NCBI GenBank assembly: GCA_964648765.1
Contig: CAZYLF010000003.1
Coordinates: forward strand, 41,676 to 105,675
Length of the DNA: 64,000 nucleotides
Direction of reading: 5' to 3'
Origin: an uncultured Candidatus Saccharibacteria bacterium
GTDB lineage: Bacteria; Patescibacteriota; Minisyncoccia; Phycocordibacterales; JACOZG01
Shown here: positions 3,160 through 54,510 of the stretch, in pieces
Layout of the letters: the number at the start of each line of letters is the position of its first letter
Position numbering within the stretch: position 1 is the stretch's first letter
Translations under genes and position numbers: made by a program
The notes under the pieces: generated by a model
Seen by the model: the letters and a program-made list of their open reading frames with translations, nothing else
Told to the model about the DNA's origin: nothing
Databases searched by the model: none

Positions 3160-4431
3160 ATGAAAAATGAGGGTGGGAAAATAGAGGAAATAGTGTGGGA
3201 TGTGGCCGTGATTGGCGGTGGGCCAGCGGGCATGATGGCGGCCGCGCGCGCGGCGGAACGTGGCGCGCGGGTTGTGTTGCTTGAGAAGAATGAGGGCTTG
3301 GGTAAAAAGCTCTTAATCACCGGTGGTGGGCGTTGCAATGTGACCAATGGCGAACACGACGACCGCAAACTGCTGGAGAAGTTTGGCGAGGCGGGTAAAT
3401 ATCTTTTCTCCACCTTCTCACAATGGAGTGTAGACGAGACTTTAAACTTTTTCTGGAGTCGCGGGATGCAGACTTGGGTGGAGAATGAGTTGCGCATCTT
3501 CCCTCTCTCCAACAAGGCCGAGAGCGTGTGGCAAGTGTTGGTGGATTATCTTAAACAAAATAAAGTTGAAATAATTTCAAAAGCTGAAGTGATTGGGCTA
3601 GAGCAAAAAAATGGTTTAGTAACTGGCGCAATTTTAAAAAATAAAAAGGTGATAAGGGCTAAAAACTTTATCTTAGCCACTGGTGGCAAGTCGCACCCCG
3701 AGACGGGCTCCACTGGCGAAGGCTTCGCTTGGCTGGCCACGCTCGGTCACACCATCATCAATCCCACCGCCTCACTTGTGCCTATTAAGTCGCGCGATGA
3801 GTGGGTCAAAAAGTTGCAAGGCGTCACGCTCAAAGATATTAAAATTACTTTGTATCAAAATGGTGTTAAGCAAACTAAGCCGAAGGTAGGTAAAATCCTC
3901 TTCACTCATTTTGGCGTCAGTGGCCCTACGATCCTAAACCTAAGCTCCGAGGTTGGCGAGCTACTTAAATATGGCGAAGTGATAATTTCTCTCGACCTCT
4001 TCCCTAAACTTAGTCACGAGACAGTGGATGATATGTTGCAAAAGATCCACACCGAGCACAGTGCCAAAATGTTAAAAAATAGTTTAGCTGAATTTATTAT
4101 GCCTGCGCTGGTGAGCGGCGTGCTCGAGATGGCGCAAGTTAACGGCAACGCCTTCGGTCACACGCTCGGGCGTGAGTCTCGACTTGAGGTGGTTAAAACT
4201 CTTAAAGCTCTCCCCATCCGCGTGAGTGGTTTGCTCGGAGAAGATAAGGCCATTGTGACCTCCGGCGGCGTGAAGCTAGATGAAGTTAACTTTAAAACTA
4301 TGAGCTCCCGCCTCATCCCCAATCTCCACCTTGTCGGCGACCTCTTAAACATCAACCGCCCCAGCGGCGGCTTCAGTCTCCAACTCTGCTGGACCACCGG
4401 TTATGTGGCCGGGAATTCCATATTAATTTAG
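3160..4431 (+). CDS. NAD(P)/FAD-dependent oxidoreductase, HI0933/BaiN-like flavoprotein family
   Basis: N-terminal dinucleotide fold DVAVIGGGPAGMMAAARAAERGARVVLLEKN followed by GGGRCNVTN. 423 aa is typical for this family. GC-rich, with an internal AT-rich segment at 3540-3680. Confidence 0.7.
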   Translation: MKNEGGKIEEIVWDVAVIGGGPAGMMAAARAAERGARVVLLEKNEGLGKKLLITGGGRCNVTNGEHDDRKLLEKFGEAGKYLFSTFSQWSVDETLNFFWSRGMQTWVENELRIFPLSNKAESVWQVLVDYLKQNKVEIISKAEVIGLEQKNGLVTGAILKNKKVIRAKNFILATGGKSHPETGSTGEGFAWLATLGHTIINPTASLVPIKSRDEWVKKLQGVTLKDIKITLYQNGVKQTKPKVGKILFTHFGVSGPTILNLSSEVGELLKYGEVIISLDLFPKLSHETVDDMLQKIHTEHSAKMLKNSLAEFIMPALVSGVLEMAQVNGNAFGHTLGRESRLEVVKTLKALPIRVSGLLGEDKAIVTSGGVKLDEVNFKTMSSRLIPNLHLVGDLLNINRPSGGFSLQLCWTTGYVAGNSILI

Positions 4432-43977: not shown

Positions 43978-44964
43978 CTACCGAACCACATCAAGCAGGT
44001 TTGGTTGCTTCCGTGTTTGATTGAGACCCAAACTGATTGCAGAGGACAACTGTCCAAGATAGCCAGAAGGTAAGAAAACTGACTTAGCGCCATCCACCAC
44101 CAGGGCCGTAGCCAGGGCCACCCCATCTTGGACAAGATTCCCAATCACCTTCACCGGCGGACGATCAACTTGCGGTTTTTGGGTAGCCGCATCAAGTCGA
44201 TCCAAAATCATTGGATGAGAAATTGGGGTTAGCAAGGAATTCTCATCCGCATTAAAGCTTATCAAAGCTTGGTTCAGGTGAGTTCCCGTTTCAATTGTGC
44301 CAGCATACATTTCAACTATTCGAGTCACCATCTCCTTAGTTGCTCGCGGGGATGGCACCAGCACTCGTAGTGTTTCATTCCTGTCATTTTGGAAGAAGAT
44401 GATCGTGCTCATGTCGAGTAAGTCCGGGGTGGAAAGTTGCGTGAGATTAAGACTCACCTCTTGGTTTCCACCACCCCCAAACAATGAGCGCAAGCTGATA
44501 TTAAGTCGTCCAGCAAGATCGCCCCTTAGACTGTGACTCGCCACATGCTCAACCCTAAAAGCTCGCCAATCTCCCTCCAATTCATTTTCCTGCAATGGAA
44601 ACTGATCAGACCTCTCCACCACAAATCGCGGCAGAATAGCGTTGGAAAATGTTTGGGCCATGTTGTAATCAAGAAGGTTCTTCTCAAATATTTGCTGTTT
44701 TTTCCTTTCACCTCCAACCTTGTACAAGCAAGCTGAGATGAGAAATGAGATGACTGAGACTCCCAACCAGCCAAAAAGGAAGTACCCGCCTGAACTTACA
44801 GTAGGATTTGGCCCGCTTGTCATACATGCACCGAAAACCATAGCCAAAAAACCAGCAAAAAACATCACACCAAATGGCGCACCTACGTAAGGATCAACTA
44901 AATCAGACACTTCCCGCTTTGCATGTTCCGAAAGCGGTGCACCAAGCGCGATTTCTCGATTCAT
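43978..44964 (-). CDS. Hypothetical membrane protein
   Basis: 328-aa ORF with two N-terminal TM helices. Confidence 0.3.
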   Translation of the reverse strand: MNREIALGAPLSEHAKREVSDLVDPYVGAPFGVMFFAGFLAMVFGACMTSGPNPTVSSGGYFLFGWLGVSVISFLISACLYKVGGERKKQQIFEKNLLDYNMAQTFSNAILPRFVVERSDQFPLQENELEGDWRAFRVEHVASHSLRGDLAGRLNISLRSLFGGGGNQEVSLNLTQLSTPDLLDMSTIIFFQNDRNETLRVLVPSPRATKEMVTRIVEMYAGTIETGTHLNQALISFNADENSLLTPISHPMILDRLDAATQKPQVDRPPVKVIGNLVQDGVALATALVVDGAKSVFLPSGYLGQLSSAISLGLNQTRKQPNLLDVVR

Positions 44965-45089
44965 TTTTATCTCCTCAAAAGATAGGGTCTAGTTCACAAT
45001 GAACTTTCTGACATAATACCTACCATATTTATAAAATTAAGTCAAATATTTTAAAACAAAAAGCCCCGCCATCAATTGAGAGGGTGGGG

Positions 45090-45602
45090 CTATGATTTAT
45101 TATTTGGAAAGAAACTGTGATACACCTTGATTGCAGTCATCTCGAAATAGATGGCTTCACTAAATGGCAGGCCTGGAGTGCGGTCTTTTGCGATTCTGAT
45201 CATGTCCTGCTCCCAAGCTGGTGTCAAAATGAATTTGCATGCCTGGGAATTTATAAAGTCAAAAAACCAATAGTCTCGACGGTGCCATTCTCTCGGCCAG
45301 TAATTGGTATAAAAACCATACTTTCTGCCATGATAATCTGCGGAGATAACGGCATCAGGCTCAAAAGGTGCGGGAAAACGTTTGATCTCGTTGCTGTCTA
45401 ATGACATCCCTGATAGTACGGCCACTTCTTCGTTATCGACTATGCTCTTCCGGAGATCCTTCAGTTGACTTAGATCCATTGTCCAGTCACCATCTGTTAA
45501 ATATGATGTGACTATTACTCCATGATTTTCAAGTTCGGGAGCTAAGCCCCGCATCCAATCGCAAAGTATCGGCTCATGAGCCACTAGCACAATCTCCTTC
45601 AT
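45090..45602 (-). CDS. Hypothetical protein
   Basis: 170-aa ORF only. Confidence 0.3.
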   Translation of the reverse strand: MKEIVLVAHEPILCDWMRGLAPELENHGVIVTSYLTDGDWTMDLSQLKDLRKSIVDNEEVAVLSGMSLDSNEIKRFPAPFEPDAVISADYHGRKYGFYTNYWPREWHRRDYWFFDFINSQACKFILTPAWEQDMIRIAKDRTPGLPFSEAIYFEMTAIKVYHSFFPNNKS

Positions 45603-45657: not shown

Positions 45658-47235
45658 CTAAGCAATCACCCCACCACCCAAACAAACATCATTATCATAC
45701 AAAACGCATGACTGGCCCGGAGCAACCAAAGGTGATTCTATAAGAAAAGTTACAGTTGAGCCATCAAGCGTGCACGGATAAAGTTCACCATGATAGCGAA
45801 TTTGGACCATGAGCTTTTTGTTTTCTGTCGGCGCTTCACCGGTCCAATTTATATTTATTAACTTAATTTGCTTGGCGGGTTTGGTTAAATTAATTTTTTC
45901 AGAAACGGTCAAAGTATTTTTATCTACATCTTTGGCGACAATGTAATAAGGTTTATCATCCGGAGTTTTGGCGGTGATAGTAAAACCATGGCGCTCGCCG
46001 AGCGTGTAAAACATCGCGCCGTCGTGCGCGCCAATCTTCTCACCCTTTTCATTTATCACATCACCCGGAACTTCATTAATAAATTCTTTTAAGAAATCTT
46101 TAAAATCAATTTTACCTACGAAGCAAAGCCCTTGGCTATCCTTCTTCTCTGCTGTTGGCAAATTAAATTTTTTCGCCAACTTTCTCACCTCACTTTTCTC
46201 GTATCCACCGATAGGGAAAAGAGTGTGAGTAAGAATTTCTGGGGTCAGAGTCCAGAGAAAATATGTTTGATCTTTGGCCGAGTCTTTTGAGATTCTTAAT
46301 TTAGCTAAATTCAGCCCCTCCCCCTGCCCCCTCCCCAAAAGGGAGGGGGTTTGGATCCCCCCCCTCTCCTTTGGAGGGGGTTGGGGTGAGGCCTCCTCAA
46401 GAGCTTCTTTAATTTTCATTAATACGGTGTCGATATCACTCAAAACCTCTTCATTTTTAAACCTAATTATTTTAAAACCTAAAACTTCTAATCGATTCGT
46501 TCTTTCTTGATCTCTCTCGATTTGATAATCATGAACATCGCCGTCAATTTCAATTATTAAAGATTTTTCAAGGCAAACAAAATCAACAATAAACTTGTCG
46601 ATGATATGCTGGCGACGAAAGTGAAAACCATTTGAATCTTTCCTTAATTTCTCCCAAATTTTCTTTTCTGCCAAAGTTGGCTTCCTGCGCATTTCAAGAG
46701 CCTGCTCTTGTAAAACTCTGTAAAATTTTTTATCTGCGGTTCTAAAACCTAATTCAGCCCCTCCCCCTGCCCCCTCCCCAAAAGGGAGGGGGTTTGAATT
46801 CCCTCCCTCTCCTTTGGAGAGGGTTGGGGTGAGGCCGATCTGCGCATAATGCCCCGTCGCCACAAAATCCGCCCCATGCTCCATCGCCCACTTGTAAAAC
46901 GCGCCAAATTTAATTTCGCGATTACACATCACATCGGGGTTCGGCGTGCGGCCGAGTTTGTATTCGTTCACCAGATAATCCACCACGCTTTGCTTGTACT
47001 CCTTTTCCAGATCGAGTGTGATGAGCGGAATCTCAAGCTCGGCCGCCACACGCATGGCATCTCGCCGGTCTTCACGCCAGGTGCAGGCGCTAGCAAACTT
47101 CTCCCCACTCGGCTGCCAAACTTTAATAAACACACCCACGACTTCACAGCCTTGCTCTTTAAGCAAAGCCGCCGAAACCGAGGAATCCACTCCCCCGCTC
47201 ATCCCTACAAAAACCTTTTTCTTGACGCCTTTCAT
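45658..47235 (-). CDS. mnmA: tRNA-specific 2-thiouridylase MnmA carrying a ~187-aa in-frame insertion (DUF559 endonuclease-like domain)
   Basis: PP-loop VFVGMSGGVDSSV at the N-terminus. ...ATGHYAQIG and KDQTYFLW...CFVGK flank a 187-aa insert between residues that are ~20 aa apart in canonical MnmA. 525 aa versus a typical ~360. Confidence 0.8.
   Translation of the reverse strand: MKGVKKKVFVGMSGGVDSSVSAALLKEQGCEVVGVFIKVWQPSGEKFASACTWREDRRDAMRVAAELEIPLITLDLEKEYKQSVVDYLVNEYKLGRTPNPDVMCNREIKFGAFYKWAMEHGADFVATGHYAQIGLTPTLSKGEGGNSNPLPFGEGAGGGAELGFRTADKKFYRVLQEQALEMRRKPTLAEKKIWEKLRKDSNGFHFRRQHIIDKFIVDFVCLEKSLIIEIDGDVHDYQIERDQERTNRLEVLGFKIIRFKNEEVLSDIDTVLMKIKEALEEASPQPPPKERGGIQTPSLLGRGQGEGLNLAKLRISKDSAKDQTYFLWTLTPEILTHTLFPIGGYEKSEVRKLAKKFNLPTAEKKDSQGLCFVGKIDFKDFLKEFINEVPGDVINEKGEKIGAHDGAMFYTLGERHGFTITAKTPDDKPYYIVAKDVDKNTLTVSEKINLTKPAKQIKLININWTGEAPTENKKLMVQIRYHGELYPCTLDGSTVTFLIESPLVAPGQSCVLYDNDVCLGGGVIA
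46308..46393. repeat. 86-bp direct repeat, copy A (G/C-tract rich, internally palindromic)
   Basis: AATTCAGCCCCTCCCCCTGCCCCCTCCCCAAAAGGGAGGGGGTTTGGATCCCCCCCCTCTCCTTTGGAGGGGGTTGGGGTGAGGCC. Differs from copy B at ~5 positions. Confidence 0.8.
46751..46836. repeat. 86-bp direct repeat, copy B
   Basis: AATTCAGCCCCTCCCCCTGCCCCCTCCCCAAAAGGGAGGGGGTTTGAATTCCCTCCCTCTCCTTTGGAGAGGGTTGGGGTGAGGCC. Contains the perfect hairpin CCCTCTCC-TTT-GGAGAGGG. Confidence 0.8.
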
Positions 47236-47286
47236 TACTTAATGACATTAGCAATTTTAAGCCATTTTTGCTAGAATCGTTTAAAT

Positions 47287-52257: not shown

Positions 52258-54510
52258 CTAATTGTCAAACACAAAGTTGATAAGTCGGTTGGGTATAAAG
52301 ATTGTTTTTTTGATTGCTTTGCCGGCAAGCCACTTGCTTGCGACCTCTCGCTTTTGAGCTAAATCAGAAACTTCATTTTGAGTTAAAGTTGGAGAAACTA
52401 GAATTTCATCACGAACTTTGCCGTTAATTTGAATGATTATTTTCACCTCACCCAACGCCTCTTTTACTGCCTGAGCTTTTGGCCAGGCTTCGAGCGTAAT
52501 TGACGTTTTATGACCTAATTTATTCCACAATTCTTCAGCCAAGTGCGGAGCAAATGGCGAGATAATTTTTAAGAAAGTTTCAAAGGTTTTTAGAGAAACC
52601 GATTCTTCACTTTCCATCGCGTTCGCGAGAATCATCATCTGACTCACGCAAGTGTTGAACTTCATCGCTTCAATATCCTCCCCTACTTTTTTTACACATT
52701 GATTAAGCAGTGAATCTAGATTTTCGTTATTCGCCTTTGCTTTAATTTTAGAACTCACTCTCCAAACTTTTTCTAAAAACCTGCGCGTGCCCACCAAACC
52801 ATCTTCGTTCCAAGACGCGGTTTGCTCAAATGGACCAATAAACATTTCATACAGGCGGAGAGCGTCCGCGCCGAAGCGTTCCACCATCGTGTCAGGATTA
52901 ATCACATTGCCGCGAGATTTACTCATCTTCTGACCGTCTGGGGCTAGGATAAATCCGTGCGAAGTACGCTTCTGGTATGGCTCTCTACCTGGCACCAACT
53001 TTTGATCGTATAAAAATTTGTGCCAGAAGCGCGAGTAGAGCAAGTGGAGCGTGGTGTGCTCCATGCCACCGTTGTACCAATCTACAGGTTGCCAGTATTT
53101 TAATTTTTTGAAATCAGCAAAACTCTTTTTATTTTTCGGATCCGCATAGCGCAAATAATACCAAGATGAACCTGCCCAGTTTGGCATCACATCAGTCTCA
53201 CGCCTAGCCCAAGCTTTACACTTCGGGCATTTAACTTTAATCCACTTGTCGGCCTTCGCGAGTGGCGAATCGCCATTTTCCGTTGGTTTAAAGTCCTTAA
53301 CCTTCGGCAACTTTACTGGCAAATCCTTCTCCGGCACCGCTTGCCAGCCTTGACCCGCCTTGGCGTGGTTACAGCTCTCACAGTAAATTAAGGGTATCGG
53401 CTCACCCCAATAACGCTGCCGACTAAAAACCCAATCCCGGAGTTTATAAGTAGTAACTTTTTTTGCTCCAGTTTTAGCAAACACATCTTCAATACTTATT
53501 AAATCAAAATTCTTAATTGGGAGATTATATTTTTCAGCAAATACTTTATCTCGATCATCGGCTGCGGGCACGCCCATGATGGCGCCGGAGCCGACGCCTT
53601 CCATCACATATTCCGCCTCCCAAATTGGGATCTTCTCATTTGTGGCGGGGTTGATGGCATATTCACCCGTAAATTTATCTTGTTTACCTGCTTTCGCAAT
53701 AAATGTGGCACCATAAATAGTTTCAGGTCGAGTGGTGAATATTTGAATAGCTTCGTTAGCTTCAGAAGCTTTTGAAGCTACTCTCCTAAAGCCTATTTCC
53801 CATCCCTCCTTCCGTCCAATCCAATTCCTCTGACTCGTTTTTACGCGCTCGGGGTAATCCACCAAATCGAGATCTTTATCTAAGCGATCAGCATATTTAG
53901 TAATACCGAGCATCCACTGCTCCTTCTCCCGCTCTTCCACAGCACTGCCGCAACGCTCACACTTACCTGGCGCATCCTTATTTTCAGATGCAAGAACTTC
54001 CTCATTTGCCAAACCAATTTTGCACGATGGGCACCAGTTAATCTTCGCCTTCGCTTTATACGCCAAACCTTGTTTAAAAAATTGGAGGAAGATCCACTGC
54101 GTCCATTTATAATAAGCCGGGTCAGTTGTGTTGATCTCGCGTGACCAGTCGAAGGAGGTGCCAAGCAATTTAATTTGTCGACGGAAGTTATCAGAATTTT
54201 TTTTGGTGACAATCGCCGGCTGAATGCCAGTTTTAATTGCATAATTCTCAGTAGGCAAACCGAAAGCATCCCAACCCATGGGGTAAAGTACGTTGTAACC
54301 TTCCATGCGTCGTTTGCGAGCAATAATATCCAAGCCAATATAAGGTCGCGGATGTCCCACATGCAAACCATCACCAGATGGGTAAGGGAATTCTACTAAA
54401 GCATAATACTTCTTTTTCCCACCATCTTTAGCTTGGAAAAGTTTTTTACTTTCCCAATATTTTTGCCACTTCTTCTCAATCTTTTTTGGGTCGTATCCTT
54501 GCTCCTTCAT
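52258..54510 (-). CDS. leuS: Leucine--tRNA ligase
   Basis: HVGHPRPYIGLDIIARKRRMEGYNVLYPMGWDAFGLP (HIGH region), and KMSKS (GQKMSKSRGN). 750 aa. Confidence 0.9.
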   Translation of the reverse strand: MKEQGYDPKKIEKKWQKYWESKKLFQAKDGGKKKYYALVEFPYPSGDGLHVGHPRPYIGLDIIARKRRMEGYNVLYPMGWDAFGLPTENYAIKTGIQPAIVTKKNSDNFRRQIKLLGTSFDWSREINTTDPAYYKWTQWIFLQFFKQGLAYKAKAKINWCPSCKIGLANEEVLASENKDAPGKCERCGSAVEEREKEQWMLGITKYADRLDKDLDLVDYPERVKTSQRNWIGRKEGWEIGFRRVASKASEANEAIQIFTTRPETIYGATFIAKAGKQDKFTGEYAINPATNEKIPIWEAEYVMEGVGSGAIMGVPAADDRDKVFAEKYNLPIKNFDLISIEDVFAKTGAKKVTTYKLRDWVFSRQRYWGEPIPLIYCESCNHAKAGQGWQAVPEKDLPVKLPKVKDFKPTENGDSPLAKADKWIKVKCPKCKAWARRETDVMPNWAGSSWYYLRYADPKNKKSFADFKKLKYWQPVDWYNGGMEHTTLHLLYSRFWHKFLYDQKLVPGREPYQKRTSHGFILAPDGQKMSKSRGNVINPDTMVERFGADALRLYEMFIGPFEQTASWNEDGLVGTRRFLEKVWRVSSKIKAKANNENLDSLLNQCVKKVGEDIEAMKFNTCVSQMMILANAMESEESVSLKTFETFLKIISPFAPHLAEELWNKLGHKTSITLEAWPKAQAVKEALGEVKIIIQINGKVRDEILVSPTLTQNEVSDLAQKREVASKWLAGKAIKKTIFIPNRLINFVFDN

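Follow-up and report, generated by a model that had tools for sequence, protein, structure and literature searches.

An in-frame DUF559 nuclease cassette bounded by palindromic repeats in the mnmA gene of an uncultured Saccharibacteria bacterium, and its relatives in other housekeeping genes

The stretch of DNA analyzed here (the window; 64,000 nucleotides [nt] of contig CAZYLF010000003.1 from an uncultured Candidatus Saccharibacteria bacterium) carries an mnmA gene, encoding a tRNA 2-thiouridine synthase, into which a DUF559 nuclease cassette is fused in frame. The gene lies at positions 45658 to 47235 of the minus strand and is a complete open reading frame (ORF) of 525 amino acids (aa). Its N-terminal MnmA part (aa 1 to 133; 46837 to 47235, minus strand) holds the PP-loop motif SGGVDS and Cys104 and runs up to ATGHYAQI, while the C-terminal part (aa 310 to 525; 45658 to 46307, minus strand) contains the segment LAKLRISKDSAKDQTYFLW, Cys371, and the PRC-barrel and beta-barrel domains. 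Both parts were modeled with a predicted local distance difference test score (pLDDT) mostly above 88. Between them lies a cassette totaling 529 bp (46308 to 46836), which lacks its own start, stop, and promoter and consists of a nuclease segment between two 86-nt repeats.

Apart from the cassette, the host protein has the features of an ordinary MnmA. Pfam recognized the MnmA HUP domain (PF03054; E value, 2.5e-73), broken at aa 134, followed by PF20259 and PF20258, and the MnmA chains 9hlv, 2hma, and 2der in the PDB aligned in two blocks (query residues 5 to 134 and 313/316 to 524; E values of about 1e-82), the break being the loop that holds the insert. The three-domain architecture is complete, and S13 to S18, C104, and C371, which are invariant columns among the orthologs, are all present. 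MnmA with the insert thus keeps all catalytic residues and presumably still works. Relative to the orthologs, the extra segment begins at about I133, ends at about N309, and comprises about 177 aa. Of 113 MnmA orthologs, 62 have 15 aa in the loop from GHY to KDQ(S/T)YFL; this loop reaches up to 64 aa in the others, measures 190 aa in the window protein, and is the most length-variable surface loop of MnmA. In an AlphaFold model built from an MnmA-only alignment, the MnmA parts have a pLDDT above 90, the insert sits between short strands at residues 131 to 134 and 312 to 315, and the linkers are coil. In this model, the insert takes the place of the beta-hairpin tip that lies between GHYA and KDQTYFL. 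Other material is found in the same loop as well. MnmA orthologs from the candidate phyla radiation (CPR; P0066, P0069, and P0090) contain fillers of 49 to 64 aa that do not resemble the palindromes described below (for example, SGGHFADAKASRTSTS followed by ACPE), which indicates that the loop accepts several kinds of insertion.

The central part of the cassette (46394 to 46750, minus strand) is a segment of 119 codons that lacks its own start and stop and has a GC content of 29 to 35%, compared with 43% for the window; the core is thus AT-rich and the repeats GC-rich relative to their surroundings. The Pfam model PF04480 (DUF559) matched aa 176 to 279 over essentially its full length (profile positions 4 to 108 of 109; E value, 1e-33; 115.9 bits against a cutoff of 20.6). 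DUF559 and MTES_1575 were the only Pfam families found in the insert, and its match to NCBIfam PRK09767 (E value, 8.8e-22) fell under the equivalog cutoff. In a phmmer search the insert matched 3hrl, a DUF559 structure (2.5e-18), and gave a weak match (0.019) to 3r3p, the I-Bth0305I homing-endonuclease catalytic domain. An AlphaFold2 model based on a DUF559 alignment (pLDDT, 85) was compared with known structures by Foldseek and matched 3hrl (E value, 5.5e-6; template modeling [TM] score, 0.85) and 3r3p (E value, 7e-5; TM score, 0.75; probability, 1.0), with Vsr structures matching at lower scores. The modeled domain therefore appears to have a restriction-endonuclease-like fold. The core also shows the conserved residues D...E-x-D-G-x-x-H...D (D58, E69, D71, H75, and D82), and we predict it to be a DUF559/Vsr-like PD-(D/E)xK nuclease. 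Just two N-terminal helices precede the nuclease core, and Pfam detected no NUMOD or helix-turn-helix (HTH) DNA-binding module. The PADLOC defense models gave no hit, PHROGs gave weak hits only, and tblastn of the insert against the 64-kb window found no second copy.

The two repeats are direct, 95% identical, and spaced 443 nt apart, as found by a repeat search of the window. Each is an 86-nt GC-rich compound palindrome made up of an end A, an 8-nt spacer, and an end B'. The first copy in the coding direction (46751 to 46836, minus strand) is translated as GLTPTLSKGEGGNSNPLPFGEGAGGGAE, and the second (46308 to 46393, minus strand) is read in another repeat frame as ASPQPPPKERGGIQTPSLLGRGQGEGLN; both are read through in the mnmA frame as Gly/Pro-rich peptides. 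Four of the six frames are free of stops in the copy at 46308 to 46393 and three of the six in the copy at 46751 to 46836. When folded, the 86-nt unit forms a single long compound hairpin (-62 kcal/mol; z score, -3.5), in which an outer stem of GCCTCACCCC and GGGGAGGGGC encloses two inner hairpins. The first of these, CCCCCTCCCCAAAAGGGAGGGGG, lies at 46327 to 46349 with a twin at 46770 to 46792, and the second lies at 46358 to 46380 with a twin at 46801 to 46823. The hairpin CCCCTCCCC-N3-GGGGAGGGG encodes PLPxGEG in both orientations. A core 22-mer of the repeat occurs at these two places only in the window, with none expected in 100 shuffles. A GC-rich stretch at 3192 to 3286 was also considered as a repeat and was rejected, being an ordinary FAD-binding N terminus. 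Since the nuclease frame lacks its own start and stop and the palindromes are translatable, the nuclease would be made as a passenger domain of MnmA. Recombination between the 86-nt copies would delete 443 nt, and because 443 is not a multiple of three, mnmA would be frameshifted, so that simple loss of the cassette is expected to be selected against. In a MetH locus of the same family (L060), both doublet copies are in the same frame, and such a frameshift lock is therefore not general.

Much of this had been proposed in a sequence-only reading of the same DNA. The ORF, the Pfam matches, and the ortholog alignment bear out the size of the protein and the position of the insert between GHY and KDQ(S/T)YFL; the AlphaFold model agrees with the proposed surface loop in placing the insert at a beta-hairpin tip. 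That reading was also correct in seeing a complete DUF559 domain, a frame preserved across the insertion (translation is open throughout), and two 86-bp direct repeats translated as Gly/Pro linkers, the latter to the exact coordinates.

An endonuclease-type domain in frame at a conserved site of an essential protein recalls inteins with nested homing endonucleases, and an insert of this kind could, as an intein, intron, or other such element, be lost from the transcript or the protein to leave a mature MnmA of normal size. The long end hairpins could in principle be RNA processing sites. Their Rfam matches, however, were subthreshold and of the miRNA-precursor type only, which reflects the long-hairpin nature of the 86-nt unit, and no group I or group II intron or other ribozyme family was found by Rfam at the gathering cutoff or at an E value of ≤1. 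Pfam detected no Hint/intein domain, and the junctions AQ|IGLT and EGLN|LAKL have neither a Cys, Ser, or Thr nucleophile nor a terminal His-Asn. In addition, the frame is open throughout, here and in 66 of 80 related loci (described below), which an intron would not need, and the flanks are coding-neutral palindromes. With neither a Hint domain nor splice-junction residues, the insert must, unlike an intein, stay in the mature protein. A removable element is thus very improbable, in line with the proposal from sequence that the insert is intein-less and not a canonical insertion sequence; no transposase was found either.

Comparison with orthologs indicated that the site is empty in relatives. 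Among the best 120 MnmA hits, DUF559 was found only in the window's own protein. The closest ortholog (P0002/L001; 364 aa, 85% aa identity in the alignment) has an uninterrupted 15-aa loop at the DNA level with no doublet, and its contig is syntenic with the window (YceG, RNase T, ZIP, mnmA, a 170-aa ORF, and AlaRS). The next-closest ortholog (P0003/L112; 75% aa identity) likewise lacks a DUF559 insert. Its loop is 32 aa long and has a G-rich segment, GGAGGAGAGGGGAATTC, similar to the hairpin-plus-GAATTC center of the window doublet (compare 46790 to 46810), which is suggestive of a decayed end or remnant of an earlier insertion at the same MnmA site. Occupancy is thus sporadic at one conserved host site, which is empty in the closest ortholog and in other MnmA orthologs. 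The sequence-only reading had named close relatives that all carry the insert, with diverged repeats, as a refutation; this was not borne out, since neither the 85%- nor the 75%-identical ortholog nor any other of the best 119 hits has it.

An assembly chimera at the repeats, or a decaying mnmA pseudogene, might produce a similar picture. The contig is metagenome assembled, GC-rich repeats are error-prone, and the window protein (P0001) exists as one database record only, a look-up having found no further contig. A random misjoin is, however, not expected to yield a 1,578-nt open frame that passes through two repeats in two frames and a full-length nuclease, and all the invariant MnmA residues are intact. 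The same architecture is also found in dozens of independent genomes, cultured isolates among them, which makes an assembly artifact, named in the sequence-only reading as a possible refutation, very unlikely. We regard both the chimera and the pseudogene as hardly credible.

The related elements were surveyed among the 80 nearest genomic DUF559 loci, with a frame counted as open if at least 100 aa lay beside the domain. By this measure 66 loci were open on both sides and 7 on one side, and the remaining 7 were stand-alone genes with their own start codon. The hosts identified by Pfam in this sample were LeuRS, MetH, MeaB-MCM, guanylate kinase (Gmk), a type ISP enzyme, RecG, RecJ, and acetyl-CoA synthetase (ACS). 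The LeuRS hosts form a class I tRNA-synthetase cluster of 35 loci, most with the insert at one site just before the editing domain and the remaining few at other sites, or possibly in other class Ia synthetases. The MetH hosts comprise 16 loci with at least three sites. A search with the insert further found DUF559 with linkers of the same type fused to TGT, IspF, RecJ, RNase H, and others. The host genes are functionally unrelated and represent at least 12 families. In a profile search of 1.84e9 representatives, which gave 41,371 hits, the domain was internal in 55 of the best 150. The cassette family was found in Bacteroidota, CPR/Patescibacteria, Chloroflexota, and cyanobacteria, and the LeuRS site is occupied in both Bacteroidota and CPR. 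Carriers include the isolates Cellulophaga baltica DSM 24729, Gillisia mitskevichiae DSM 19839, Pedobacter sp. Leaf194, and Flavobacterium gawalongense; the first two carry the insert in LeuRS, and Winogradskyella litoriviva carries one in MetH. A phage collection gave two weak matches only, and the 12 records listed from a plasmid collection included stand-alone DUF559 genes of 41 to 46% identity. These results do not point to phages or plasmids as vectors.

The ends of the elements were derived by comparing the DUF559 flanks in the 80 loci. In the usual layout, terminal inverted repeats (TIRs) stand directly against the ORF, with the consensus GCCTCACCCC-NN-CCCTCTCC-NNN-GGAGAGGG upstream and its reverse complement downstream, and this consensus is conserved across phyla. 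Over its first 30 nt, the window repeat matches the element end in a Bacteroidota locus (L037) without a mismatch, although the two DUF559 proteins are only about 49% identical, indicating that the ends are more conserved than the nuclease. Relative to the remaining sequence of these loci, the stretches within 200 nt of a DUF559 core are enriched 21-fold in perfect GC-rich hairpins. A survey listed DUF559 genes, without interpretation, as enriched among predicted inversion targets (PMC9881135), which is consistent with their inverted flanks. Measured against the family consensus, the 86-nt unit of the window consists of a left end, an 8-nt spacer, and a right-type end, and it is therefore a doublet resembling miniature inverted-repeat transposable elements (MITEs) or REPINs (hairpin-forming doublets of repetitive extragenic palindromic [REP] sequences). 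The doublet-ORF-doublet layout of the window recurs in L060 (MetH) and P0135, and direct rather than inverted flanks are found in the window, L060, L056, L057, and L023. No target-site duplication was visible at 20 well-defined elements, and the loop of the window's empty-site ortholog is too diverged to be read in this respect.

Doublets also occur without a nuclease. The MnmA orthologs P0004/L113 and P0074/L114 from CPR have loops of 40 to 42 aa (LTPSPSPKERG...PSPLGKGQGWG and LTPSPSPKERG...LPFGEGLRVG) whose DNA aligns with the whole 86-nt unit of the window, and the left junction is shared (...CATTAYGCG..ATC|RGCCTCACCCC). In an MnmA tree calculated with the loop masked, the carriers of loop doublets fall in one larger clade, interspersed with orthologs that have the plain 15-aa loop; either the site was hit repeatedly or an old insertion was lost several times. 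Another solo palindromic doublet lies in frame within a PheS-like gene (L108, 1834 to 1925; FPEEHPARDMQDTFF and, farther on, LTPTLSKGEGEKAGKANEANSLSPGEGRGEA), where the repeat alone behaves like a Rickettsia palindromic element (RPE). A strict search for the doublet pattern returned four loci only. The end motif GCCTCACCCC..CCCTCTCC...GGAGAGGG was found without any DUF559 in 21 IMG/VR viral contigs (L087 to L107), twice as doublets (L095 and L106) and often right after a stop codon, which is a terminator-like position, and solo ends and doublets without DUF559 are present in metagenomes as well. The 86-nt repeats are thus copies of a dispersed palindromic doublet and not a by-product of the insertion.

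The existence of solo doublets raises the prospect of a two-step origin, in which the MnmA loop already held a REP/MITE-like solo doublet and a doublet-bearing DUF559 segment was integrated by homologous or site-specific recombination (Campbell type), giving two direct copies; the nuclease would then be the palindromes' passenger and not their driver. This scheme fits the solo doublets that other CPR mnmA genes carry in the same loop with the same junction, the possible remnant GGAGGAGAGGGGAATTC in the 75%-identical ortholog, the DUF559-free ends and doublets in viral contigs and metagenomes, and the direct flanks of the window and the four loci named above. The 15-aa loop of the nearest ortholog, on the other hand, is clean and without a doublet, most family members have simple inverted ends against the ORF, and no circular form or donor was found. 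We consider this order of events somewhat unlikely as a separate account; it is compatible with, and partly nested in, the explanation by a selfish cassette that we favor below.

The evolution of the domain points to constraint. The catalytic motif D...E.DG..H is intact in 81 of 83 DUF559 cores. Among pairs with unsaturated dS, dN/dS of the inserted domain is 0.07 to 0.10, similar to that of the host flanks, and in LeuRS and MetH pairs the aa divergence of the insert tracks that of the host. These values indicate purifying selection and, often, long inheritance together with the host gene. In a neighbor-joining tree from a short alignment, DUF559 cores from different host genes intermix, and the window core groups with TGT, LeuRS, and RecJ copies of CPR or groundwater bacteria. 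The pattern points, if weakly, to occasional movement of the cassettes between genes.

These results bear on the main alternative, that the insert is an ancient, domesticated fusion in which DUF559, as a useful nuclease (for example, in Vsr-like mismatch recognition or repair), rides on essential genes, vertically inherited and immobile. The low dN/dS, the host-matched divergence, the almost universally intact catalytic motif, the LeuRS site common to many Bacteroidota and CPR, and the divergence of copies within one genome are all what such a fusion would show. Purifying selection is, however, equally expected for an active selfish nuclease. A vertically inherited fusion also fits poorly with the absence of the insert from the 85%- and 75%-identical MnmA orthologs and the rest of the best 120, with at least 12 unrelated host families and several sites in one host such as MetH, and with the intermixing of cores from different hosts; and conserved TIRs and solo doublets typify a DNA element and would not be expected of a fusion at the protein level. 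Domestication is improbable. Family members elsewhere do look old and vertically inherited, so the MnmA insertion counts as recent only when set against the divergence from the 85%-identical relative. The proposal of a domain-level mobile insertion made from sequence is supported overall with this restriction on its age, and with two further changes: the repeats did not arise through the insertion, and the insert is one member of a large family.

Taken together, the mnmA insert is probably a selfish, palindrome-bounded DUF559 cassette that is expressed as a passenger domain and may have spread in a homing-like manner. The nearly stop-free palindromes would provide Gly/Pro-rich, probably disordered linkers of roughly 30 aa per side, and the nuclease, translated within MnmA, would be tethered or displayed on these two flexible linkers. 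It might cut empty target sites, or perhaps the palindromic ends or cruciforms, and recombinational repair might then copy the cassette in, much as in homing. If the cassette integrated into a resident solo doublet or beside one, two direct 86-nt copies would remain, and an insertion would survive selection only if it was in frame, free of stops, and in a tolerant loop of an essential gene.

Several observations weigh against a selfish, mobile cassette. No mobility event was observed in the sequences compared, the nearest relatives of the window DUF559 are only 54 to 59% identical, and the databases searched held no near-identical donor. The 64-kb window contains no further copies of the repeat, an exact search of the metagenome contig collection for the B' half of the window repeat gave no match, and neither a target-site duplication nor a common target motif was detected in family elements. 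L034 and L074, two copies from a single genome, have just 59 of 122 residues in common, and the codivergence with hosts in Bacteroidota fits long vertical residence, possibly with a role that benefits the host, better than frequent jumping. The core also lacks the separate DNA-binding module of the EDxHD homing endonucleases, so that specificity for a long target is putative, and that the fusion protein is expressed, folds, and is active is a prediction from sequence and models.

Parts of the cassette resemble several known systems. REP/REPIN sequences with their RAYT (REP-associated tyrosine transposase) are reportedly extragenic and usually single-copy, with an HUH/Y1 (IS200/IS605-like) transposase. 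Shared with the elements described here are doublets of inverted GC-rich hairpins that serve as dispersed noncoding units and an enzyme gene flanked by copies of the repeat. The enzyme here is of the PD-(D/E)xK type, however, the repeats are mostly intracoding, and the 64-kb window holds no multicopy population. RPEs are said to be in-frame palindromes that are translated as extra surface peptides and to carry no protein of their own. Short, in-frame, translated palindromes are common to RPEs, MITEs in coding regions, and the elements described here, and the solo doublets of MnmA and of the PheS-like gene act in just this way, whereas some of the present palindromic elements carry a nuclease frame between or beside the palindromes. 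As in MITEs and RPEs, a palindromic TIR structure is present. The 64-kb window holds only the two copies, not the many dispersed copies of such elements, and homologous copies occur in other genomes.

Among nuclease-based systems, I-Bth0305I is an EDxHD/Vsr-like homing endonuclease with N-terminal NUMOD/HTH modules that resides in a self-splicing group I intron and has relatives in inteins (Taylor et al. 2011, PMC3239194). The nuclease fold, the active-site constellation, residence in housekeeping genes, and presence/absence polymorphism are shared with such enzymes, whereas the window element is a bare DUF559 domain of about 120 aa, with no intron or intein, that is fused to its host through palindrome-encoded linkers. 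The ShiLan insertion in a mycobacteriophage DNA methylase has an HNH endonuclease that is encoded out of frame, and it lies in a nonessential phage gene, with no palindromic ends reported (Arsenault, Gosselin and Gogarten 2025, PMC11855218). Like the cassette, it is an unspliced in-frame insertion, homing-like and neither intein nor intron, and predictions for both show the insert looped out from the fold of the host protein. Unlike ShiLan, window-type elements have their nuclease in frame, belong to another superfamily, have conserved TIRs, and reside in essential bacterial genes of several phyla.

In-frame nuclease cassettes that live in housekeeping proteins without an intron or intein are widespread and apparently undescribed; a literature search for a DUF559 or palindromic in-frame cassette found no description, with journal coverage that was partial and a prior description possible. 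More tentatively, DUF559 nucleases and the GCCTCACCCC-NN-CCCTCTCC-NNN-GGAGAGGG palindromes could constitute an unrecognized class of bacterial mobile element, in which REPIN-like repeats are mobilized by a Vsr-fold nuclease rather than a transposase. Within such a class, it is conceivable, though we would not yet bet on it, that the stop-free ends evolved to encode Gly/Pro linkers that let cassettes colonize loops of essential proteins, as an "intein without splicing." If the cassette explanation holds, a selfish nuclease gene can persist in essential genes without RNA or protein splicing, a third solution, beside introns and inteins, for invading conserved genes, by means of its own translatable linkers and tolerant loops. 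It would account for odd DUF559 "fusion" annotations in LeuRS, MetH, MnmA, TGT, RecG, RecJ, and IspF and for Gly/Pro-rich "PLPxGEG" peptides in many predicted proteins, and it would give a testable role to DUF559, a very large family of unknown function (>40,000 clusters at 50% identity). It would also provide natural, evolution-tested domain-insertion sites in core enzymes that are useful for protein engineering. The cultured carriers (Cellulophaga, Gillisia, Pedobacter, and Flavobacterium) make the cassette idea directly testable.

LeuRS deserves separate mention. DUF559 is present in the LeuRS of close relatives of the window organism (P0243, P0244, P0248, P0249, and P0276) and absent from that of the window itself (52258 to 54510, minus strand; 750 aa), which has no extra domain. 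Among the LeuRS proteins of relatives (P0242, P0243, P0329, P0340, and P0347), that of the syntenic relative holds a NUDIX domain (935 aa), and the inserts in others include DUF559, DUF559 plus NUDIX (1,101 aa), an alpha/beta-hydrolase, and HAD plus NUDIX (1,173 aa). In this CPR clade, LeuRS is a hot spot at which extra domains are found in frame. Inserts of the NUDIX, HAD, and hydrolase types were considered as members of the cassette family and were not merged with it; the NUDIX junctions, the only ones checked, have no palindrome-encoded Gly/Pro linkers, and the NUDIX insert in LeuRS looks like a separate phenomenon.

The surroundings of mnmA differ from those in the closest relative at one further place. 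The gap between the ZIP transporter gene and mnmA is a 51-nt spacer in the window (47236 to 47286), compared with about 860 nt holding two small ORFs (106 and 81 aa) on the relative's contig (L001, 5139 to 6000), which amounts to a second indel beside mnmA. Downstream of mnmA, two ORFs of 170 and 328 aa (43978 to 45602, minus strand) gave no Pfam match, and the position of the 170-aa ORF next to mnmA is kept on the relative's contig.

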